In this document: positions 24,927 through 60,269 of the stretch, in pieces
Layout: every line of letters starts with the position of its first letter
Numbering within the stretch: position 1 is the stretch's first letter
IMG/VR virus record: IMGVR_UViG_3300028886_000058
Span: 60,602 to 124,601 of that record
DNA from: a virus
Lineage: Duplodnaviria > Caudoviricetes
Length of the DNA: 64,000 bases
Strand: one strand, 5' to 3'
Made by a program: the position numbers and the translations under genes
Notes under the pieces: model-generated
What the model was told of the DNA's origin: nothing
Database searches by the model: none
Seen by the model: only the letters and a program-made list of their open reading frames with translations

Positions 24927-25928
24927 TTAGCCAATTTCGTAAGCACCGATAGTAGGAATGCTTCCAACAACAAACGCAGCACCGAAGCGCTGAGTAAGTT
25001 CGGTTTCAAACGTATGATCATCAATCGTCTGCTGAGTCATGCTGTAGGTCGGACCCTCATTCAGAACTTTCAGATTCTTTTGATCATTGCCAACACCAGA
25101 AGAAATAATATAGATCCAATCCTCATTCAGAATAGGAGTGGTCTTACCATCTTCATAAGCGTTGACCATAGAAATAACGCTAGCACCATTGTAACGTCCA
25201 AGGTAACCAGTGTTATTCTTCTCGTCGATCATGCTACCGCTGTACTGTATGCTCGTGTTAGACACAGGAGCACCAGCCAGAGCAAACAGACCTTCGACAG
25301 CAGCAGCGTCACCAACGAGTGACACGCCGCCAAGACGCTTAAAGTACATCAGCTGGTCATCCAGCGTAGCCTTCACGATACCGGTACCAGTGCCATAGAA
25401 CGGACTCTGATACTGAGAAATAGCATTGTGCAGAACCTGCTCCACATACTTCAGTTTCAGCATGGTGAATTCCTTGTTCGCATCGCGAATCAGGTCAGGC
25501 ATGTTGATACGATTCATGCGAATATCCCAGATGTTGATAGCGGGACGGCTCGCAATTTCAAAAGTATTAATGGAGAACTGACGGTCAGTCACATAGCTAC
25601 GAGCAGTCGTAGCACCAGTAGCCTGAATGAACGCCTTGATACCAGCGGTCTTCATCCGATACATAGGCCTGTCGCCAAGCGCCACGTTACGAATATCACC
25701 GAAGGTTTCCATGAAGTTCAGAGAATTCTGCTGCAGTTCGTTAATAGTGAACGCAATGATCTGACCAATTTCGTGCTGATGCTGAGGAGACATGTCCTGA
25801 GCCAGTTCATTCACGATAGCGGAAGCTTCTTCGACCTTATCGGAGTCGACCCGTTCATTACGGACCTGAGCAGCCATTACTTTAATAAGCTTGCTGTCCT
25901 TATCCACTTTAATTTCAGCCATTGTCAT
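24927..25928 (-). CDS. Major capsid protein
   Basis: 333 aa, follows protease/scaffold and decoration genes, strongly biased codon usage, LGRYNGASVISMVNAY motif typical of SPbeta-like capsids. Confidence 0.8.
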   Translation of the reverse strand: MTMAEIKVDKDSKLIKVMAAQVRNERVDSDKVEEASAIVNELAQDMSPQHQHEIGQIIAFTINELQQNSLNFMETFGDIRNVALGDRPMYRMKTAGIKAFIQATGATTARSYVTDRQFSINTFEIASRPAINIWDIRMNRINMPDLIRDANKEFTMLKLKYVEQVLHNAISQYQSPFYGTGTGIVKATLDDQLMYFKRLGGVSLVGDAAAVEGLFALAGAPVSNTSIQYSGSMIDEKNNTGYLGRYNGASVISMVNAYEDGKTTPILNEDWIYIISSGVGNDQKNLKVLNEGPTYSMTQQTIDDHTFETELTQRFGAAFVVGSIPTIGAYEIG

Positions 25929-41509: not shown

Positions 41510-41673
41510 AAGGGGAACCCATCACCCTTTTATAAGTGGCGTCCACTACCCACGTTAAATACCGCCGGTGGATAGACTGTCTCGGTCGATAATTGAGGGG
41601 CCGCATACGGGTCGAACAGTATGCCTCGAACAACAGAAATTAATTAATAAAAGAAATTATTGGAGGTACTAAA

Positions 41674-42039
41674 ATGAATCGCACTACTATTATTGGACAC
41701 GTTACCAAGGATGCCGAAACCCGCACTGTTAAGGTTGGCGGAATTGATACTCTGGTTACCGACTTCACCGTTGCCGCTAACGAAGGCTTCGGTGAGAACC
41801 AGAAGACCGCCTATTTCCGCATCACGATCTGGCGTGAGCGTGGAGCTAAGATGGCTCCGCATCTCGTGAAGGGCCGTGCTGTGGCTGCTACTGGCGTGGT
41901 TTCCGCTCGTGGCTGGAAGGACAACGAGGGTAACGCCCGTGCTCAGCTGGAACTGAACAACGCGTCTGTGGAGTTCATCGGCAAGAAGCCTGGTGAACCT
42001 GACGACCTGCCGTTCGTTCCGGACGAAGAGATCGCGTAA
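41674..42039 (+). CDS. ssb: Single-stranded DNA-binding protein 1
   Basis: MNRTTIIGHVTKDAE, FTVAAN, FRITIW, LVKG and the DDLPF tail. Confidence 0.92.
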   Translation: MNRTTIIGHVTKDAETRTVKVGGIDTLVTDFTVAANEGFGENQKTAYFRITIWRERGAKMAPHLVKGRAVAATGVVSARGWKDNEGNARAQLELNNASVEFIGKKPGEPDDLPFVPDEEIA

Positions 42040-48499: not shown

Positions 48500-48886
48500 A
48501 TGCAGAAAATTATCATTTGTGGCAATCTTACTGCCGATCCGATTATTAATGAACGGGAATATGTGGTTAAAGATACGGCAGAAATTAAAAAGACAAAGGT
48601 TGCTAATTTTACTGTGGCTGTTGACAGTGGCTATGGTGAAAGGAAAACTACACAGTTCTTCAGGGTAAATGCATGGCGCGGACTTGGCGAAACTTGTGCA
48701 AAGTATCTTGAGAAGGGTCGTCAGGTTATGGTTGAAGGCGTTGTCTCTCTTAACAATTACGTTGACAAGAACAATAACCTTCGTGCTGTAATGGAAATTC
48801 GTGCAAATGAAGTACAGTTTCTTGGCAGCAAGGGCGTTGAGACTCCTGAAGAACTTCCTCCTGAAGAAGAGGAAATGCTTTATTAA
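48500..48886 (+). CDS. ssb: Single-stranded DNA-binding protein 2
   Basis: IIICGNLTADP, FTVAVD, FFRVNAW, YLEKGRQVMVEG and EVQFL motifs. Confidence 0.92.
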   Translation: MQKIIICGNLTADPIINEREYVVKDTAEIKKTKVANFTVAVDSGYGERKTTQFFRVNAWRGLGETCAKYLEKGRQVMVEGVVSLNNYVDKNNNLRAVMEIRANEVQFLGSKGVETPEELPPEEEEMLY

Positions 48887-50569: not shown

Positions 50570-50640
50570 CGAGGATGTAGTGTAACGGTAACACGCGTCG
50601 CTTGGGACGACGAGTAGCAGTTCGACTCTGACATCTTCGA
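50570..50640 (+). tRNA. tRNA-Pro(TGG), atypical acceptor/T-stem geometry
   Basis: CGAGGATG/CATCTTCG acceptor, GTGT/ACAC D stem, CGTCG-CTTGGGA-CGACG anticodon arm and TTCGACT T loop with a weak T stem. Confidence 0.75.
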
Positions 50641-50832
50641 CTTTAAACCGAGTGTATGGGACGAGGCTACACATTCCCATTCGAAACGCACAAAAACTCT
50701 CGCCCAGTGTAGGGGTAGGTGAACGGTAACGCGTAGCGCTACCGACACGAAGAAGAGAGTTGCTGGGTTTATATTCCTGCGGTTTGCCGGCTTTGTTATT
50801 ATTTTATGACTTACTGATAATGGAGAAAACGT

Positions 50833-51357
50833 ATGAAAACAAATTATGTTGCTTCTTGGCGTCCAGGTGCAGATAAGGTTTATAGCAAAAATATTGATGT
50901 TCAAAAGGTAGCTCAAGAAATGCTTGCTATTAAAGGTGAAAATAGTCTTGAAACAACTACTGCTGAAGAGATTGTTAATATGGCAAGAGACGAAAATACA
51001 GAGAGCCATAAAATTTTTGAGTGGGATGATTCTATAGCGGCTGAAAAATATAGAGTTACTCAAGCTCGTTACTTAATGCACGATGTGCACATTATATGGA
51101 CAAAGACTGGCAAAAAGAAAGAAAATAAAACAGTTGTTCCTGTAAGAATGTTTTATAACTTGAAAGGCGAACTTGGATATCATCCAACACCAGTTATTAT
51201 GAAGAACGATGATCTTCATAAGAAGCTTTTAATGACCGCAAGAGCTGAACTTGAAGCTTTTAAAAAGAAGTATGAAATACTTTCAGAATTAAAGCCATTA
51301 CTTGTTGAAATTGATAAAGTTATTTATGAATTAAAGATATTTGAAGAAACTGCCTAA
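50833..51357 (+). CDS. Hypothetical helical protein, partner of the RAMP-like gene
   Basis: TAEEIVNMARDENTESHKIFEWDDSIAAEKYRVTQARYL motif; ends 6 nt before the pentamer array. Confidence 0.75.
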   Translation: MKTNYVASWRPGADKVYSKNIDVQKVAQEMLAIKGENSLETTTAEEIVNMARDENTESHKIFEWDDSIAAEKYRVTQARYLMHDVHIIWTKTGKKKENKTVVPVRMFYNLKGELGYHPTPVIMKNDDLHKKLLMTARAELEAFKKKYEILSELKPLLVEIDKVIYELKIFEETA

Positions 51358-51363
51358 TAATCA

Positions 51364-51964
51364 TGCGGTTAGTACAATTAGGAGCTTATTACTTCTTTTG
51401 CATAGCTTATAATAGAATAGAAAAGGACAGCAAATAGATAAAACACTATAAAATATAATAAGCTTCTTATTGTGCTAACCGCACAGAACCTTACAATAAA
51501 ACAGAAAAGCAAACAATAGTTCCATGTAAAATACGTTAGCCTAATACAGAACACGAAAGCATATCTACCGGTCTGAATAAGGATGCAATGCATCCTGTAA
51601 GTTAATTTATGATATTATAAGTTAAATTACTATATAATATGATTTTATACCACAGTATACTATATAACATTGCATCTTTATTCAGGCTGGTAGTGATACC
51701 AGTTGTAGGTCATGACAGCAAAATATAGGATAGTTAAGAAAACCTTATGATTGGACAGGACACAATAATGTGTACCAACTATGTGGTTGGTACAATTGGA
51801 GACTTGTGAAAGTCTTTCAGCATATGACAAACTAGGACACTTTAGGCTAGAAAAACATATGACACAATAAAATACGACATAAGTCTTCAATTGTGCTAAT
51901 CGCACAACTATATTGCAATATAGCAAAACAAAGGTCAACCTAGGAAAAAACAACACATAATATT
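51364..51964 (+). ncRNA. Array of three long hairpins and six 5-nt-periodic (NNA-NN) tracts; putative guide RNA array
   Basis: Stems 51364-51391/51456-51483, 51565-51590/51668-51693 and 51782-51808/51878-51904. Eleven of the 12 non-Watson-Crick positions are G-U on the + strand. Pentamer tracts lie inside and between the hairpins. Confidence 0.85.
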
Positions 51965-51980
51965 TAAAGGAGTAAAAGAA

Positions 51981-52661
51981 ATGAAAAAGAAAGAAATCAA
52001 AGCAAACAATGAAGTAGAACTGATGAACATTCAAGCAAACATTAAGCATATGATTGTCACTGTTGAAGGTGATGGCGATCTTATTCTTAATAAAATGAAT
52101 GCTCGAAATGAACGCTGGCTTCTTGGTGGACGAGATAGCGGTGTTGAAGAACGTTCAAACGTGTGGGAAGATATCATTACGTCTATTCATTGGTATAAAC
52201 CACTTGAATGCGAAGACACTTATAAAGAATGTAATGAAGAAATGATGATGTCTCTTCTTAAGGAAAATAAACCGTGTATTTCTGCGTTTGCATTTAAGAA
52301 AAGCTTTGGAGATGCAACAGTACGGAACGAAATTGATACATATGCAACGAAGATTAATACAGCTGTTAATGTAGTTGCTGTTGGAGGACTTATTCCGATT
52401 GAATTCGGTGGTTGGAGCGTAGAAAAACGGCTGATGAGCCCGAAGAAAGGCAAGCCGCTTACTGTGCATCTTAATCATTTTCATAATTGGAGTGCTAAGA
52501 TTCAAATTGATTATATGGATCATGTATTTAGCCGTGATCAAATTCTGAATATTATCAATCTGGCTGGCTTTGGTCTTGGCATTGGAAGTGGACGAACTTC
52601 TGGATATGGGCGTTATCACATTACTAACGTAGATATGATTGAAGAAGCAGAAGCAGCATAA
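51981..52661 (+). CDS. Solo RAMP / Cas7-like RNA-binding protein
   Basis: N-terminal strand (MIVTVEGDGDLILN), PCISAFAFKKSF helix, WSAKIQIDY strand and C-terminal glycine-rich loop AGFGLGIGSGRTSGYGRY, as in RAMP RRM folds. No other cas genes or CRISPR array in the window. Confidence 0.75.
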   Translation: MKKKEIKANNEVELMNIQANIKHMIVTVEGDGDLILNKMNARNERWLLGGRDSGVEERSNVWEDIITSIHWYKPLECEDTYKECNEEMMMSLLKENKPCISAFAFKKSFGDATVRNEIDTYATKINTAVNVVAVGGLIPIEFGGWSVEKRLMSPKKGKPLTVHLNHFHNWSAKIQIDYMDHVFSRDQILNIINLAGFGLGIGSGRTSGYGRYHITNVDMIEEAEAA

Positions 52662-52710
52662 AAATAATTGATGAAAAACATCTGACAGCTCGGAAAGACG
52701 AGCATTTTAT

Positions 52711-52796
52711 CGGCTAGTGGCGCAATAGGCAGATTCGCAGGAGACTTAAAATCTCCCGGAGGTAACTCCATGTGGGTTCGAGTCCCACCTAGCCGA
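52711..52796 (+). tRNA. tRNA-Leu(TAA)
   Basis: CGGCTAG/CTAGCCG acceptor, GGAGA-CTTAAAA-TCTCC anticodon arm, long variable arm and GTGGG-TTCGAGT-CCCAC T arm. Confidence 0.9.
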
Positions 52797-52818
52797 CTTA
52801 TTTTTAGGAGGATCAAAT

Positions 52819-53043
52819 ATGATTGAATATATTGTTCCGGTAGATGAAAACCAACTAGAAAAAGAAGACTATGAATGGTTTAAAGAAAATTCACATGGAA
52901 GACTGATAAGATGTAAAGAGTGTAAGTACGCATTCTTTAAAGAAGGTCTTGTTCTTGAGAATCATGTTTTCTGTACAAAGGCTGGAACAGAACGAGGTAA
53001 CGCGGTGAAACCGAATGACTGGTTTTGCGCAGACGGGAGATAA
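52819..53043 (+). CDS. Zn-ribbon family Z1 protein (RCKxC...WFCADG)
   Basis: RCKEC...DWFCADGR. Confidence 0.65.
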   Translation: MIEYIVPVDENQLEKEDYEWFKENSHGRLIRCKECKYAFFKEGLVLENHVFCTKAGTERGNAVKPNDWFCADGR

Positions 53044-53045
53044 GG

Positions 53046-53300
53046 ATGACACATGAAATAAAATTGCATGAGACTTTTGCCGAAGCCGTGTTAAATGGTG
53101 ATAAAACGTTTGAAGTGCGATTTAATGATCGTGGTTACAGAATTGGAGACTATGTAAAATTTATAGTACTTAGCGATCTAAATAATGAAATATTAGATCA
53201 TCCATTGAATAATAACAAATACATAATTACATACCTTTTATCTGGTTGGGGAATTAAAGATGGATATGTAATATTTAGTATAAAGAAGGTAGAAGAATGA
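53046..53300 (+). CDS. DUF3850 / ASCH-PUA-like protein
   Basis: HEIKL...FAEAVLNGDKTFEVRFNDRGYRIGD...ITYL...GYVIFSI. Confidence 0.8.
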   Translation: MTHEIKLHETFAEAVLNGDKTFEVRFNDRGYRIGDYVKFIVLSDLNNEILDHPLNNNKYIITYLLSGWGIKDGYVIFSIKKVEE

Positions 53301-53614
53301 AAGTAACTAAATGGACATATTGGAATAATAATAAATATAAAGATATTAATGAACTTACAGACGATGAATTTAAAGAAGTAGAAGAAACTATTATCAAAGA
53401 AATAAAAGATAAAGGATATAAATTCTGCGGATCTGCTCATCAGAACATTGAAACTGGATGCCCAGTAATTGACGATAAATATATCTACTGCGTTTCGATG
53501 AGAAAATGGGGAGACATTATGGCAAGAGCTTACGACCTTCCAAACGAAGATGGACTGGCATATGTATTATGGTCATGGGCTGTTCCTGATGGAGAAACTT
53601 CTGTATATCCATAA
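53297..53614 (+). CDS. Hypothetical protein
   Basis: GSAHQ...PV...SMRKWGDIMA. Confidence 0.6.
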   Translation: MKVTKWTYWNNNKYKDINELTDDEFKEVEETIIKEIKDKGYKFCGSAHQNIETGCPVIDDKYIYCVSMRKWGDIMARAYDLPNEDGLAYVLWSWAVPDGETSVYP

Positions 53615-53738
53615 GATCAATATTTATTTACAAAAACCATATTAATGAACAAAAATAATAACATTATAGTTTAAAAATGAACTAAAAAGTAAAAATTATA
53701 AACACGGACAATAATATTACGATGTAGAGACGAAAACA

Positions 53739-53948
53739 ATGAATGACATACAAGAACTTGCGAATATAGCAGGAATGACTGCAAAAGCAATTGAAAGCGG
53801 TAAATTTGTTTGGGTTGTTCGATGCAAAAACTGTATCTTTGGAAAGCCCGAAGAAGACAATAAAACAAACAAGAAATGGGTCTACTGCTATCATTATAAG
53901 GAAAACCGACCAGAAGAATGGTTTTGTGCAGACGGAAAACGAAAGTAG
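53739..53948 (+). CDS. Zn-ribbon family Z1 protein
   Basis: RCKNC...EWFCADGKR. Confidence 0.65.
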   Translation: MNDIQELANIAGMTAKAIESGKFVWVVRCKNCIFGKPEEDNKTNKKWVYCYHYKENRPEEWFCADGKRK

Positions 53949-54361
53949 AGCGTCATTTCGGCACACGAATACAAGCCGTGTGTGGCACGTATGATGATGG
54001 AGGGATACTGGCCAACACAGCCGGAAGAGGGGGTAGGGCTTCCGGATTTTATAAGGAGGATATTGTTATGAAAAGTAAGCTGTTTGAAGTTATTATCATA
54101 GCACTTATTCTCGCCTTTTGTGCTAGCGCATGGATTTATGTATTAAATTACTTGTGAGGTAAAAATGAAGATTGTGCATTTTAACAAAATGTCAGTTCGT
54201 GTTCCGTTGAAAAACGACGAGAATGTTAAGGACGTTGAGAATAGATTGATTGAAGCAGTTGACTCTATAGGCGACGGTGTTGCCATGTACTTTAGTATTG
54301 AAATCGAAGATGAAGAATCATCATTCAATGAATGATAAATGTGTTGTCTTTAAAAACTTAA

Positions 54362-54434
54362 TGGGGTGTAGCCAAGACGGTTAAGGCACAGGACTTTGAC
54401 TCCTGCATCGTAGGTTCGAGCCCTACCACCCCAG
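54362..54434 (+). tRNA. tRNA-Gln(TTG)
   Basis: TGGGGTG/CACCCCA acceptor, CAGGA-CTTTGAC-TCCTG anticodon arm and GTAGG-TTCGAGC-CCTAC T arm. Confidence 0.93.
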
Positions 54435-54500
54435 CTTATTTTAACAGAACTCTGCAGGTTTTAAGTTTTGCAGAATCCTATTGAAAAGGAGCAGTTTGCA

Positions 54501-54854
54501 ATGTTAATAGAAAACCAAAAACCAGTTTGGAATGTATACATAGAAGACTACAACAAAAGAGAAATAAAAGTATTCAATGTATTTAATCATTATACGTTCT
54601 TTGAAAATTGCAAAAAAGAATTTAGAAGATATAGCAGACATAAAGATATTGAAAAACTGGAACATGAAATTAAAGGTTGGGCAATGTATTGTTTCTGGTC
54701 GAAGTGTGAATATGAAATTATATTGACTTCATGGCCTGAAAAAAAGGATTTTAAAGATATGAAGATTGATATTTACGATCAGCTTAATCTTAATTGGGAT
54801 TCGTTCTTTAAGTATGTCATGGAACATAAAGCCGATTTTTTAAGAAAAGAATAA
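54501..54854 (+). CDS. Hypothetical protein
   Basis: WNVY...FNVFNH...MYCFWSKCEYEI...KIDIYDQL. Confidence 0.65.
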   Translation: MLIENQKPVWNVYIEDYNKREIKVFNVFNHYTFFENCKKEFRRYSRHKDIEKLEHEIKGWAMYCFWSKCEYEIILTSWPEKKDFKDMKIDIYDQLNLNWDSFFKYVMEHKADFLRKE

Positions 54855-54857
54855 AAA

Positions 54858-54974
54858 TATGCGGTGGCGAAATAGGTAGACGCTTAGAACGTAAGGTGAA
54901 CATAAGGTCGAAGCTCGCATTGATCAGCGACTCCGCAGTACCATCATGTAAGGTGCAAATCCTTACCCGCATTT
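54858..54974 (+). ncRNA. tRNA-like RNA with replaced anticodon region
   Basis: ATGCGG/CCGCAT acceptor, Leu-type D arm TGGCGAAATAGGTAGACGC, 6-bp T arm GTAAGG-TGCAAAT-CCTTAC and an interior of about 64 nt with no canonical anticodon arm. Confidence 0.7.
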
Positions 54975-55156
54975 ATATGTTAGGTCTGCCGTGTCTGCGG
55001 ACATAGAGCAGTTGTGCAAGGCATGAGTGCCGAAAACATAATCCTCAAATTAATACTGTTGCTCGTCCCCGGGGCATAGAGTTACAGTAGCTTACGACAT
55101 TCCGATGCACATAGAGGATTTGGTGTCAAAACCTTTGGGAATGATTCGTGAGCATA

Positions 55157-55353
55157 GATACGGTGGCGGAATAGATTCCATCATTCCTGCGGGTAGTAGA
55201 TAAGGGCGTGGTTACCTATTATAATCACCTGAAAAGACAGGAGCGCAGGTCACGGTAAAGTAGACGCTATCAATATTCAGTTCGTGGCCCGCAGTAATGG
55301 GCGAGAGACCGAAACTGTAAGGTTATGTGGGGTGCAAATCCCCACCCGTATTA
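55157..55353 (+). ncRNA. tRNA-like RNA with insertions in the D loop and anticodon region
   Basis: GATACGG/CCGTATT acceptor, TGGCGGAATAG-[about 85 nt]-GTAGACGC and T arm GTGGGG-TGCAAAT-CCCCAC. Confidence 0.65.
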
Positions 55354-55372
55354 TTATGAAAGGATGATTATT

Positions 55373-55591
55373 ATGGACGAAGAATATGCCATTTCCTATG
55401 ATACACTTATTCATCCGGATTTGGAAGCTATTAAAAAGCGTGATGCTTTTCTGTCCGATAAAAACGGCAAGAAATTACGGGAAATGATAGACCAGATTCA
55501 CTTAATGGAAGAGATTTTAGATTGTAATAACTGTGAATATCCCAATGAATGTGAAAATTGCGCCCGCGCAATAGAAGATAGAGAAAGGTGA
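55373..55591 (+). CDS. Small Cys-rich hypothetical protein
   Basis: CNNC...CENC. Confidence 0.5.
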   Translation: MDEEYAISYDTLIHPDLEAIKKRDAFLSDKNGKKLREMIDQIHLMEEILDCNNCEYPNECENCARAIEDRER

Positions 55592-55600
55592 TAAAAAACA

Positions 55601-55942
55601 ATGACAGATCATACTCTTAATCTAATTTACGCTATTAAAAAGAGCGGTAAATCATGGAATCAAGCAGTTAGTGAATATATGTCTGCATATTCTGGTTCTC
55701 CCATTGAAAGATATGATGAGTATAGTCTTAATCATATTTTAAGAGAAGCATATTGCGATTATATATCTACTTGTGATAATCCCGCGGTAGAGGCACATAA
55801 ATTGTTAGAAATGATGGATAGTTATCCAATGTATTCGCGCGCCCATCATTTGGCAAATTGTATGGGATTGGCGCAAGTAAAAGATAAAGGAAAGTTCGTT
55901 AATGGCTTTAGAGAATATAATAATGAAATTAAGGATGGATAA
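55601..55942 (+). CDS. Hypothetical protein
   Basis: 113-aa ORF with SD. Confidence 0.6.
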   Translation: MTDHTLNLIYAIKKSGKSWNQAVSEYMSAYSGSPIERYDEYSLNHILREAYCDYISTCDNPAVEAHKLLEMMDSYPMYSRAHHLANCMGLAQVKDKGKFVNGFREYNNEIKDG

Positions 55943-55948
55943 AATAGG

Positions 55949-56212
55949 ATGCTTGCAGTCAGACTTGGAAAATTGCTGAAAGAGCAAGAAGAACAAATAA
56001 AAAGCCGTGATGAATCACTTGAAAAAGCATGGGAAGAAATCAAATGGCTTCGGGGAATGCTAAAAGAGCAGGAAACAGTAAAACCGATAGTAATGGATCA
56101 TATAGTTTTTGGAACAAATAGAAAATGTTCAAAATGTAATCAGGCACTTTTTCCTGCTGGAAAATACTGCCCACATTGCGGACAGGCGGTGAAGTGGGAT
56201 GAAGGTTGCTGA
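55949..56212 (+). CDS. Zn-ribbon family Z2 protein (LLKEQ...CxxC...YCPxCG)
   Basis: CSKC...YCPHCGQAVKW. Confidence 0.65.
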   Translation: MLAVRLGKLLKEQEEQIKSRDESLEKAWEEIKWLRGMLKEQETVKPIVMDHIVFGTNRKCSKCNQALFPAGKYCPHCGQAVKWDEGC

Positions 56213-56373
56213 ATTTGAAAAATGCTTTATTGGGATTCCGATGAAGGACGGGGAAACCCGTGAAGAAATTGAGGATAGGTTTATATCCGCATTGGAGTCG
56301 GTCAACGAGGATTGCGTTGCGACATACACGCTGAAAATCACAGAATACGATGATTAAAAGGTCGGTGAAGTGA

Positions 56374-56586
56374 ATGAGGCTGTTTAAGAAACGCAAAAGA
56401 AAACACTACAATTTGAGAGAAGAACTTGCAAAGTGGGTTGAAAAAACTATCGGTGCTGAATATGTAGAAGAAGCGCTCGATAAGTATGACAAAATAAACA
56501 GTGGTATTCCGATTGGTGGTATGGCTGAAACAGTTGCGTTTGTCGGTATGGTTGAAACTGTAAAAGCTGAAGTAGAAGGTCGGTGA
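56374..56586 (+). CDS. Hypothetical protein
   Basis: 70-aa ORF bounded by AAGGTCGGTGAA junction repeats. Confidence 0.55.
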   Translation: MRLFKKRKRKHYNLREELAKWVEKTIGAEYVEEALDKYDKINSGIPIGGMAETVAFVGMVETVKAEVEGR

Positions 56587-56931
56587 AATGACAATGGAAC
56601 AAATCATAGAAATGTTAGCACATGTGGAAATGTGCGTAACAGGAATGACAATATGCGTAGTTTTGATAATGGTTGCCACGCTTTTAACAGCAATTAATTC
56701 TTTTTTCAAGTAACTTATTAAAGTAGACAATAAAGTCGGTGAAGCGAATGAATGAACTTATTGATGTTCTTAACTGGATTCACAGAGATTTGCTGGTTAT
56801 TGCCACTATTCTGATTTGTTTTGTGCTGTTTAAGGATTGCCACGGTTATAGTAATTCTGGAATAGTTGACGAATTAAAAAACATCAAATCGATCATTCAG
56901 CACAAGAAATAAGAAGGTCGGTGAAGTTATA

Positions 56932-57288
56932 ATGGGACTGACTGAAAGGCATTGGTTTGAAGATGAAGAGCCGGAATTAACAGATCGACAATTAGAAGAT
57001 ATAGTATATGAAAACAAAAAGGCGTATGACAATGGTTATGTAAAAGGCTTCCATGATGCTAAAACACTTGAGGAATATTTTGTTGAACTTGGAGTAAAAA
57101 TAGGGTTTTTGACACCGGAAAAAGCAGAACAACTATTAAAAGAACATCCACAAATAATCCGATGCAAGGATTGCAAGCACGGGAAGAGCAGGAAAAATGC
57201 TAAAGGCGAAGACATGATTGATTGTTTGCTTGCGGATAATTGGTTAAAGTCTCCTGATTGGTTCTGTGCTGACGGAAAACACAAATGA
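56932..57288 (+). CDS. Zn-ribbon family Z1 protein
   Basis: LLKEH...RCKDC...DWFCADGKH. Confidence 0.65.
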   Translation: MGLTERHWFEDEEPELTDRQLEDIVYENKKAYDNGYVKGFHDAKTLEEYFVELGVKIGFLTPEKAEQLLKEHPQIIRCKDCKHGKSRKNAKGEDMIDCLLADNWLKSPDWFCADGKHK

Positions 57289-57304
57289 ATAACGGGGTGA
57301 TGGG

Positions 57305-57595
57305 ATGGACAGGGAAAAGGTAATTAAAGGACTTGAAATTTGCACAAGCCCAGGAACAAAGGGATGTGTGTATGATATGTATGAATCAGCAATTGAATGT
57401 CCATATGCCCATCATGGGTGCAGAGTGCAAATGGAAAACGACGCTCTTGCTCTGTTGAAAGAGCAAGGAAAAACAGGACATTGGATATACAAAAAATATG
57501 ATGATATGTTCATGTGTTCATGTTGCAAGAAGTATAGCATTCGTAATAACTATCCGTATTGTCATTGGTGCGGCGCAAAGATGAAAGGTCGGTGA
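57305..57595 (+). CDS. Zn-ribbon family Z2 protein
   Basis: DREKVIKGLEIC...LLKEQ...CSCC...YCHWCGAKM. Confidence 0.65.
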   Translation: MDREKVIKGLEICTSPGTKGCVYDMYESAIECPYAHHGCRVQMENDALALLKEQGKTGHWIYKKYDDMFMCSCCKKYSIRNNYPYCHWCGAKMKGR

Positions 57596-57600
57596 AGTAA

Positions 57601-57882
57601 TTGGACAGAAAGAACGTTATGAAAGGGCTTGAATGTTGTTCTGATGTTGGTGGGAAACATTGTTATGAAGGTAAATGTCCGTATGCTTCAATGTCTGGAC
57701 CGTGCAGAGAACAACTTGCACAGGATGCCCTTGAACTGTTAAAAGAGCAGGAAGCAGTTGAACCTATCCCGCCAACAGACGAATCAGAAATGTGGAGATG
57801 CGGAAACTGTCATCATCAAATCTTTAGATGTAGACATCAACGGTTCTGTGAGAAGTGTGGAAGACAGGTGAAATGGGAATGA
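57601..57882 (+). CDS. Zn-ribbon family Z2 protein
   Basis: DRKNVMKGLECC...LLKEQ...CGNC...FCEKCGRQVKW. Confidence 0.65.
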   Translation: MDRKNVMKGLECCSDVGGKHCYEGKCPYASMSGPCREQLAQDALELLKEQEAVEPIPPTDESEMWRCGNCHHQIFRCRHQRFCEKCGRQVKWE

Positions 57883-58121
57883 ATCCGTGGAGATTAAGAC
57901 CGATAACGGATAAGCAAAAAAATATATTGACGAAATGCAGAACTATAGCCCATATCCGTTGCCAAAGTTTGAAGGGCAAACAAGAGGAGAAGCTGCTGAT
58001 TACATCGACAAATATGGAAAGCTTGCACACGAAAACGAATGGGCAATTGAACATGGATATAATTGATAGAAGGTCAGTGAAATTGGCGTTAGGTTATCAG
58101 ATAGGAAGAGGAAGGTAATAA

Positions 58122-58433
58122 ATGAAGCACGATATTGAAAAGACCATTAAAGGTCTATATGATATCAGCGGCTGGATTACAGGACGACTAGGTTATGAGC
58201 AGGCAAAGAACTTTCTAAAGACAATTGATAATGCCGTTGAATTGCTAAAAGATCAGATTGTTTCCGATGAAATTCACGAAACAGCAAAACAGTTTCGCAG
58301 AACAATTATCCTGTGTAAAGATTGTATGCATCGTGATCCGGAAGATAACAAATGTGATTGCGGGCATGATATCCAATGGCAATTGCCACGAAAGGACGAT
58401 TGGTTCTGCGCCGATGGAAAACACAGAGATTAA
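58122..58433 (+). CDS. Zn-ribbon family Z1 protein
   Basis: LLKDQ...LCKDC...DWFCADGKH. Confidence 0.65.
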   Translation: MKHDIEKTIKGLYDISGWITGRLGYEQAKNFLKTIDNAVELLKDQIVSDEIHETAKQFRRTIILCKDCMHRDPEDNKCDCGHDIQWQLPRKDDWFCADGKHRD

Positions 58434-58875
58434 AGTGCAACAATAACTTTAGGAGTAAAAAACGATGGACGAGAAAAAAGCCAGTTTGCTGACAAATCCA
58501 TATGGAGAGACAAAAAGCGAGTTTATTGAAAAGTATAAGAGCATTGAAAACATTGCCGAAATTTGCTGGTACTTTGGAGTAAGGCCGGAGAAATTACAGG
58601 ATGAACTGAAGATATTACTTAAAGACAGCGTAAATGAAATGAATAAATAAAACGCTAATGGGGTGATGAAATGGCAGACACAATAACTGTAATGTCATGG
58701 CTTGAAGGTTTGGCACAGGACGATTGGAGGATGTTCCACTCTGACAGCGAGGTGCAAGAGATCGCACGGTCTGCCATTAAACTGCTGAAAGAGCAGACAG
58801 ACGAGATTAAAGAACTGCGGTCAATAGTTGAGTTTTGGAAAGAGAAAGCATTACGCACTTAAAGGAGAAAACAAA

Positions 58876-59355
58876 ATGATTAAAGTAAAACAGCATACTG
58901 AAGGGGACAGTAGAGTATCAAAAACAATACCAACTTTTCGTGATTTTCATACGGCAAATGTTGACCATATTGATGATGTTAAGCATCTATCAGTGTTTTT
59001 TGCCGAAGAGTTGAAAAGAAGAATACTAAGTCATGATTGGACAAAAATAACGGAACCTTACGAAAGTATGTTTTATCGTGATTTATGTGCTGTGCTTGAA
59101 GGACGAATGGATTTTTTTGATGGTGAGTGGTCAAATCTTCATTACAACGAATTGGAAAGACATCACCTTAAAAGACATTGCCCGGAAGACGTAGATATGT
59201 TTGATGTAATAGAAATGCTATGCGATTGTGTAGCTGCTGGCATGGCAAGATCAGGGAATGTGTATGATGTTGATATTCCTGCTGAAGTGCTGACTAAAGC
59301 AGTTGGAAACACAGTAAAAGTCTTGGAATCACAGATTGAAGTAATAGAGAAGTAA
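58876..59355 (+). CDS. HD-superfamily phosphohydrolase-like protein (DUF5662-like)
   Basis: HIDDV...SHDWTK...HY...RHH...EMLCD motifs. Confidence 0.65.
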   Translation: MIKVKQHTEGDSRVSKTIPTFRDFHTANVDHIDDVKHLSVFFAEELKRRILSHDWTKITEPYESMFYRDLCAVLEGRMDFFDGEWSNLHYNELERHHLKRHCPEDVDMFDVIEMLCDCVAAGMARSGNVYDVDIPAEVLTKAVGNTVKVLESQIEVIEK

Positions 59356-59440
59356 TGCGTTAAAGGCAACAATTTACTGCGTATTTTCTCCATGAAATTG
59401 TGTTTTACACAATTTGAAGATGAAAATAACTACAAATTAT

Positions 59441-59512
<72 letters not shown>

Positions 59513-59976
59513 CTACAGGGGTTCCCGTGCGGTGTGGGAACTTAATGTTGTCCGCTGTTGATGCTTGCGCAGGCTAAATACAGAACCAATCCCTGTTCTC
59601 TTCTTTCTTTTCTCGGCGGACGCGAAAGAAGAATCCATTATGGTTGTATTTGCATGGAGTACAACTGAAAATCTAATCCAGTGCGCAAACACGGTGTGTG
59701 GTTCTCTATGATTGAAACGAGCAATTTATGAGGCCTTACGTAAATTAGTCGCGACAATAGCACTTAATTGGACGTTCGATTCGTTCAGCCGTATAGCTAT
59801 GCTCCGCTTGGCATAGCAGTGATTCGCGTAGCACCTTATCAAGCATAACAGGGTGGTTCCCAACTCCGAAGTTACAGCACGGATTCATAGTAAGTTATAG
59901 TTTTATAGCTAACCATTATATATAATTCTATAACACTAAGAAGCGTTAGTAAGACTGGTTAGTAGGAGTATTATTA

Positions 59977-60047
59977 CGGGATGTGGTGTAGCGGTAGCGC
60001 ACCTGGCTTATATCCAGTAAGTGGGAGTTCGACTCTCTCCATCCCGA
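59977..60047 (+). tRNA. tRNA with TAT anticodon (Ile, reads AUA)
   Basis: CGGGATG/CATCCCG acceptor, CTGG-CTTATAT-CCAG anticodon arm and GGGAG-TTCGACT-CTCTC T arm. Confidence 0.8.
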
Positions 60048-60269
60048 CATCGTTGCTTCGTTCGAATCGAACCGGGACTACTTTCGCCGTCGCAAGCTCC
60101 GGCGATACCGAGAAAACGCGCTATCTTGCGCTACGCATTTTCAACTTTCCGCTTATCCATATTGGGTAAGCTTTATGCGCTTGCGTGTAAGCATTAATAT
60201 CAAGCTCACCACTTGATGGCGTAAAGATCATCATCTAAAGAAAAAATGATTAAGGAGTGTGATTAAAAG

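Follow-up and report, generated by a model that had tools for sequence, protein, structure and literature searches.

Tract 5, a run of pentamers in an intergenic region of a cattle-gut phage, is probably the guide segment of a VIPR vrRNA, which we infer to be aimed at the ssb gene of a rival phage while the phage's own ssb is spared. VIPR is a CRISPR-related DNA silencer whose first description, in 2026, drew on NCBI genomes with systems of the GGY type (bioRxiv 10.64898/2026.04.26.720920). It comprises a stand-alone RAMP protein (Vipr), a vap gene, and vrRNAs made of 9-16 pentamers of the form GGY+NN. Vipr protomers sit one per RNA pentamer, hiding the triplet and presenting the NN letters, which pair with dsDNA in twos; each third base of the target flips out, and binding silences transcription (bioRxiv 10.64898/2026.04.26.720920, 10.64898/2026.04.26.720927, 10.64898/2026.10.15.759431; hereafter, the VIPR preprints). 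Because of this skip, which usually coincides with the codon wobble, a VIPR guide reads codon positions 1 and 2 and ignores the third.

A pentamer array between two phage genes

The locus belongs to a phage of the Caudoviricetes with a genome of 124.6 kb and 38% GC, from which a stretch of 64,000 nt was analysed (the window; positions refer to it unless a locus or genome handle precedes them). A 620-nt gap at 51360-51980 separates a gene for a 174-aa protein (50833-51357) from a gene for a 226-aa protein (51981-52661), all on the + strand. Runs of A with a period of five are concentrated in this gap, unlike in the rest of the window, and the autocorrelation of the gap has its maxima at lags 5 and 10. 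The array is made up of six or seven tracts of 7-19 units each, and its parts, together with the ssb gene, are laid out as follows.

48500-48886, + strand: ssb gene (Pfam SSB, E 7.6e-21; PHROG 44)
48671-48703, + strand: near-target of tract 5 in the phage's own ssb, codons AWRGLGETCAK (gapped match)
50833-51357, + strand: accessory gene, candidate vap-like, 174 aa (PHROG 15946)
51364-51483, + strand: hairpin 1, stem 51364-51391 / 51456-51483 (folding)
in the loop of hairpin 1, + strand: tract 1 (periodicity, folding)
51476-51570, + strand: tract 2, linear, between hairpins 1 and 2 (periodicity)
51565-51693, + strand: hairpin 2, whose loop holds tract 3, 15 units from 51597 (folding)
51705-51769, + strand: tract 4 (its core recurs in the related loci L016 and L021)
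51782-51808, + strand: 5' arm of hairpin 3 (helix with 51878-51904; 27 pairs, 6 of them G-U)
51817-51871, + strand: tract 5, units 1-11, the putative guide part of the vrRNA, in the 69-nt loop of hairpin 3
51872-51881, + strand: tract 5, units 12-13 (ATACG ACATA), with unit 12 at the stem junction and unit 13 in the 3' arm
51878-51904, + strand: 3' arm of hairpin 3 (motif ATTGTGCTAAYCGCAC, common to hairpin 1 and the related loci L016 and L017)
51905-51964, + strand: tract 6, spelling L-[FL]-M-A-T-G-T-G-K-T-Y-[FL]
51981-52661, + strand: vipr, for a 226-aa minimal RAMP protein (profile match, AF2 model, Foldseek)

The genes around the array are ssb, an HNH endonuclease gene, and unknowns. The 174-aa gene has homologs upstream of the array in 78 of 80 related loci; its protein has no match in Pfam or PDB, and its relatives in the Atlas are phage proteins only, with one cluster named DUF4494. 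The array has its period of five without repeat-spacer units, and an Rfam gathering scan of the window returned five tRNAs only and no CRISPR repeat family. No match emerged when the array was compared by blastn with 50,697 phage records. The five tRNA genes (Pro-TGG, Leu-TAA, Gln-TTG, Asn-GTT, and Ile-TAT) lie around the VIPR locus, at window 50570-60048.

The neighbouring gene encodes a predicted Vipr homolog

Using a profile of the 226-aa protein and 59 relatives (A2), we obtained a match to the PDB entry 'SUSP1 Vipr protein' (36pp_D; E 4.4e-13, 52.7 bits) that spans the G-loop region. The AF2 model computed from the alignment is predicted with a pLDDT of 93.5 to adopt a Cas7-like fold, with GLGIGSGRTSGYGR as the G-loop, while the single-sequence model (pLDDT 30) is unusable. 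Foldseek places the alignment-based model closest to subunits of Cmr/Csm and type VII effector complexes, including Csm3 (E 3e-7 to 1e-4). By profile homology, the 226-aa protein is a divergent Vipr homolog. Its family is unannotated and falls into 2388 clusters when grouped at 90% identity, or 534 when grouped at 50%. A search for related loci with the single Vipr sequence returned none, and an alignment query recovered them.

In the HMM alignment, the SUSP1 residues R138, D177, and W178, which hold the two guanines of the triplet, correspond to L164, S203, and G204 of the 226-aa protein, whose G-loop also carries a 4-residue insertion relative to SUSP1 Vipr. The change at these three positions is in keeping with a repeat that has lost GG.

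Tract 5 matches the phage's own ssb in nine of 11 units

Tract 5 (51817-51881) consists of 13 in-register pentamers of the form x-x-A-N-N (TCAGC ATATG ACAAA CTAGG ACACT TTAGG CTAGA AAAAC ATATG ACACA ATAAA ATACG ACATA), and its NN letters are GC TG AA GG CT GG GA AC TG CA AA CG TA. With one base skipped per unit, these letters match the window from 48671 in nine of 13 units, and in nine of the first 11. The match keeps the codon frame, lies on the coding strand of the ssb gene at 48500-48886 in the sense direction, and places the skipped base at the wobble position. The mismatches fall at codon 3, where the guide has AA and the gene CGC (R), and at codon 10, where the guide has CA and the gene GCA (A); in each of these units both bases fail to match. 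Read as codons, tract 5 gives AW[K/N]GLG[E/D]TC[Q/H][K/N]. Units 12 and 13 fit no ssb allele; a guide in the related locus L030 also ends in three unmatched units at its 3' end. The original prediction had given the same coordinates and units, a match of nine of 11 dinucleotides at 48671-48703 with the skip at the wobble position, and two unmatched final units (CG and TA). The sequence bears all of this out, and adds that the match is in frame and sense and that the two final units lie at or in the closing stem.

The second-best site for tract 5 on both strands of the window reaches seven units, and gaps of 0, 2, or 3 bases reach seven at most. We compared the match with shuffled tracts on the 124.6-kb genome with the array masked. 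For the 11 units clear of the stem junction, at least nine matching units are reached in 0 of 3000 shuffles, and the corresponding base count (18 of 22) in 15 of 3000. With all 13 units, at least nine match in 6 of 3000 unit-order shuffles, and the score counted by base is unremarkable, 18 of 26 being matched by 929 of 3000 shuffles (31%). The tract 5-ssb match was chosen post hoc among seven tracts. The shuffled-tract and gap-size comparisons had been named in the original prediction as controls, and its chance estimate, of the order of 1e-3, is about right by these shuffles.

For the other tracts, matches within the phage's genome stay at chance level. The genome encodes three SSB-family paralogs with differing central motifs (G000:6595-6972; G000:102245-102637, which is window 41644-42036; and window 48500-48886), and the first two do not match tract 5. 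Over 11 units, the match to the third amounts to 82% of NN bases. Tract 5 is very likely related to ssb, a relation that, as far as sequence comparison goes, is well supported statistically.

The one-base-skip code holds across related loci

We retained 80 of the 221 IMG/VR loci that encode a Vipr relative. In the 30 loci inspected, period-5 A tracts lie within ~1 kb upstream of vipr. The 80 loci contain 407 tracts with a median of 12 units, and the pooled fixed triplet is ACA in 36%, ATA in 19%, and AAA in 14%; 95% of units have A as the third letter of the triplet, G is infrequent anywhere in it, and the entropy at the two NN positions is close to its maximum (1.96-1.98 bits). The tracts are arrays of the 226-aa Vipr, with a fixed triplet A-[C/T/A]-A (A-H-A).

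After masking the arrays in ~1 Mb of DNA from related phages, we matched 171 distinct guides to it and found 41 ten-unit windows with at least nine matching units at a skip of one base, and 0, 0, and 0 at skips of 0, 2, and 3. The three best guide-target pairs are in frame and sense, and for 178 of 222 guides the NN composition resembles codon positions 1-2 in sense. These results show that the one-base-skip, in-frame, sense reading holds in the A-[C/T/A]-A clade. The gapped code put forward as a mechanism in the original prediction is the published VIPR rule, and within the clade only a skip of one gives near-perfect matches. Across the clade, there is no excess of near-matches between a guide and its own locus, and no related-locus guide in the scan scored as high as 8/10 on an ssb gene. 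A TRAP-like or Hfq-like protein-binding repeat, and a DGR or retron template, were considered for the array and dropped given the Vipr homology and the skip-rule test.

Guides alternate between hairpin loops and linear segments

Folding of the array predicts three hairpins with stems of 26-27 bp and loops of 64-77 nt (z -9.1), with tracts 1, 3, and 5 inside the loops and tracts 2, 4, and 6 between the hairpins. Five related loci have the same plan, and the six loci together contain 16 hairpins (stem length 24-28 bp, loop length 59-77 nt). The stems of the six loci contain 55 G-U pairs on the + strand, far above the reverse strand, indicating that the RNA would be made from the vipr strand. MFE folding gave no 3' pseudoknot tail capping the tracts. 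The 27-bp stem that closes the guide loop of tract 5 would act as a maturation or loading signal, possibly as an RNase III site.

A mini-hairpin (AGACTT-GTGA-AAGTCT, 51800-51805 / 51810-51815) overlaps the 5' arm of hairpin 3 and competes with it, and AAGTCT occurs again at 51881-51886, directly after tract 5. Two mini-hairpins in this region, at 51772-51793 (GTACCAAC/GTTGGTAC) and at 51800-51815 (AGACTT/AAGTCT), would compete with the long stem.

A strain variant from an independent bovine DNA run (X6, window 51286-52104) carries 14 substitutions inside the tracts, nine of them at unit position 2 (C/T) and only two in NN. In tract 5, the NN letters of units 1-11 are unchanged and the two changes there are both at unit position 2; its only NN change is in unit 12. 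Between close strains, the 'fixed' second letter drifts and the guide letters are kept. The array and vipr are also covered by contigs in two bovine-gut metatranscriptome runs from one sample, contigs that show neither transcription nor RNA ends.

Other guides match a rival vipr gene, a capsid gene, and a restriction enzyme

The guide at L030:4882 matches the vipr G-loop codons (INYAGFGLGI) of two other loci, L026:4940 and L027:5574, in 10 of 10 units, and its own vipr (L030:5586, IDYSGFGLGI) in eight of 10, the changes being N to D and A to S. It parallels tract 5 in that a foreign gene is matched and the own gene carries a two-codon mismatch. Another related-locus guide, L019:4409, matches a major-head-like gene of the phage studied here (window 24927-25928, - strand, near 25760; PHROG 4088/2522) in nine of 10 units and in frame, so the phage itself is likely a VIPR target.

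An exact search of IMG/VR with the nine core units of tract 6 gives 92 matches (L102-L193), of which 90 read [LI]xMATGTGKTYT in frame. A sub-pattern of tract 5 with an equal number of fixed bases has zero matches, so few chance matches are to be expected at this length; an exact scan with all 12 units of tract 6 gave no match. The two target genes checked encode the type I restriction subunit R of the EcoAI/FtnUII family (NF046051, >1000 bits), and tract 6 matches them in 10 of 12 units and 21-22 of 24 bases. Its decoded motif is the Walker A motif of EcoAI-family HsdR. Judged by this likeness, the tract 6 match suggests that a restriction enzyme of the host is silenced through an RNA guide; such a use goes unmentioned in the available portions of the VIPR preprints and of the Evo-PIN/COMPASS survey.

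The core of tract 4 (GC AT GG xT GA xx TG) decodes to A-[IM]-G-x-[DE]-x-[CW] and recurs at L021:4608 and L016:4563; an exact 10-unit scan with tract 4 gave no match. This core is kept in phages whose Vipr is 66-73% identical, with the other guides turning over.

Natural ssb alleles match tract 5 in 10 of 11 units

The codons matched by tract 5 (AWRGLGETCAKYL) are the most conserved motif of the phage's SSB family. All nine units that match are also present in ssb genes from IMG/VR (14) and from rumen Clostridia MAGs (four), and the motif dominates the 110 closest SSB homologs. Among natural alleles, those of L012, L101, and P0292 (the last 69% identical to the phage's SSB) have Q at codon 10, and that of P0360 has N, which also reads AA, at codon 3; each change raises the match to 10 of 11 units. 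K at codon 3 is absent among the 110 close homologs, and an allele with both changes was not found in IMG/VR, JGI metagenomes, or GTDB genomes. With only single-change alleles found, the best foreign ssb match is 10 of 11.

The exact 11-unit pattern of tract 5 has 0 matches in IMG/VR and 0 in JGI metagenomes, the pattern with K at codon 3 and codon 10 left free has 0 in JGI metagenomes, and units 3-11 alone have 0 in IMG/VR. These exact gapped scans tolerate zero mismatches, so targets of 80-95% identity are missed. The original prediction had foreseen a K/Q allele and perfect matches in the ssb genes of related phages; Q and N each exist singly, but K and the double allele were not found, and the scans of IMG/VR, the JGI metagenomes, and GTDB yielded no perfect match. 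The phage of L012 was considered as the actual rival and set aside: it lacks a vipr gene, and its GC content (52% vs 38%) and the lack of matches by the other guides make it probably not the rival.

In the SSB homologs P0271-P0380, the motif AWRGLG[ED]xCx[KQE][YFW]L is otherwise fixed. In the same proteins, codon 8 is T, S, N, L, I, A, or V and codon 10 is A, Q, S, K, M, or F.

The likely target of tract 5

If tract 5 acts as the related guides suggest, it would be aimed at the ssb of a rival phage, and the own ssb would escape by its codons 3 (R) and 10 (A), which mismatch both guide bases. This reading is likely on our analysis, with parallels in the L030 guide and the SUSP1 literature; it is unproven, since the searches gave no perfect target and two of the three VIPR preprints offer no data on how well mismatches are tolerated. 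Published VIPR targets lie on either strand without a PAM and belong to competing phages, satellites, and rival vipr genes; the cut-off for natural targets was set at 80%, no self-target of at least 80% occurred in the systems described, and lower self-match scores in the SUSP1-family analysis were taken as autoimmunity avoidance (VIPR preprints). What the original prediction had claimed, that the guide targets the ssb of a related competing phage, stands as regards the relation to ssb, which 0 of 3000 shuffles reproduce. The L030 guide shows the same pattern of a matched rival and a mismatched self, but no perfect rival allele of ssb came to light.

The working target might instead be the own ssb, with the nine-of-11 pairing producing weak or timed repression during infection. 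No other site in the phage's genome matches above chance, three collections yielded no better target, and the guide is kept in the strain variant; at 82% of NN bases over 11 units it also passes the preprints' 80% threshold, so the own ssb may still be weakly bound. We nevertheless regard self-regulation as improbable, since both mismatched units lose both bases, the L030 guide clearly prefers foreign alleles, and the clade shows no general excess of own-locus near-matches and no related-locus guide at 8/10 on an ssb gene. The published systems, without self-targets of at least 80% and with lower self-match read as autoimmunity avoidance, argue in the same direction. It is also rather unlikely, in our estimate, that tract 5 is a real VIPR guide whose true target is elsewhere and unsequenced, its likeness to ssb being due to chance. 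The post hoc choice among seven tracts, the 31% of shuffles that reach the 13-unit base-level score, and the lack of a perfect ssb allele in the collections searched would all fit such a coincidence. Against it, 0 of 3000 shuffles reach nine of 11 whole units, and the match is in frame and sense like the top matches of the clade, sits on the most conserved motif of the SSB family, and has natural guide-matching alleles for both mismatched codons.

That the tract carries no target information at all, and is a structural loop or acts at the DNA level (for example as an origin, packaging site, or bend), is very hard to reconcile with the data. In favour of this reading, the region is rich in A and folds strongly (z -9.1), and its metatranscriptome cover consists of contigs, which do not show transcription. 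However, the tracts adjoin a Vipr homolog in the loci inspected, their NN entropy is near-maximal while the triplet is fixed, and their stems hold 55 G-U pairs on the + strand. Near-perfect matches, moreover, arise with a skip of one only, and the 92 exact matches of the tract 6 core fall in one protein motif.

Relation to described VIPR and CRISPR systems

Like the type II VIPR of Escherichia phage SUSP1 and of a Pseudomonas fulva prophage, the locus has a small stand-alone RAMP protein, beside a candidate accessory gene. The two also share guides of ~11-15 pentamers with a fixed triplet and variable NN, a one-base skip at the wobble position, and the use of conserved codons in rival elements (rival vipr among them) as targets, with a lower self-match. 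The gapped two-on one-off code is already known as the published VIPR mechanism. The locus is a variant in its A-H-A triplet and in the placing of its guides in stem-closed loops. SUSP1-type VIPR has GGY where this clade has A-[C/T/A]-A; SUSP1 has a 3' pseudoknot tail, whereas here alternate guides sit in 59-77-nt loops closed by 24-28-bp stems, with a competing mini-hairpin; and Vipr is 226 aa long here compared with 202 in SUSP1. Beside GGY, the variants NNNGG, YNNNG, and NNNNG have been published, and the A-H-A triplet is none of these; since further non-GGY triplets are on record (see below), it is a variant feature and does not exclude the locus from VIPR.

The non-canonical arrays of the Evo-PIN/COMPASS survey (bioRxiv 10.64898/2026.10.21.760802), as far as its available text describes them, are likewise period-5 arrays that adjoin Vipr-like folds and carry non-GGY triplets. 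The survey has 21 clusters. Its text gives the triplets GAC, CAC, WGT, and TGH and does not name ACA or AYA; the full list is in a figure of the survey. The A-H-A clade may or may not be among the 21 clusters.

With the Cas7 backbone of class 1 CRISPR (Csm3/Cmr4), the locus shares the RAMP fold, a protein filament on a guide RNA, and periodic base flipping by a thumb. The guide and target periods are 5 and 3 nt in the VIPR locus and 6 and 6 in class 1 CRISPR. Unlike class 1 CRISPR, the VIPR locus is phage-borne, with a guide array and one co-conserved neighbour gene.

Implications for phage competition

The array could, tentatively, serve as a weapon and at the same time as a shield. A guide close to self, as tract 5 is, would travel with a recoded own gene and form with it a 'poison-antidote' pair that excludes close relatives with an unrecoded ssb, and tract 6 would silence the host's EcoAI-family HsdR; we consider this combined reading possible rather than probable. 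Were it true, VIPR would have a hitherto unreported role as an RNA-guided tool against host defence, and the variability of SSB codons 8 and 10, which could reflect escape from guides like tract 5, would be the trace of an arms race.

Tract 5 and the two-codon-recoded own ssb make a clean, testable case of self/non-self discrimination in a PAM-less system. The guides described here would extend the natural targets of VIPR to ssb (replication), capsid, and rival vipr genes, and probably to a host restriction enzyme. With another triplet and another RNA architecture serving the same two-on one-off code, the A-H-A clade widens the space of programmable Vipr scaffolds. The clade is large and comes from public metagenomes, and many of its contigs are rumen or gut phages.
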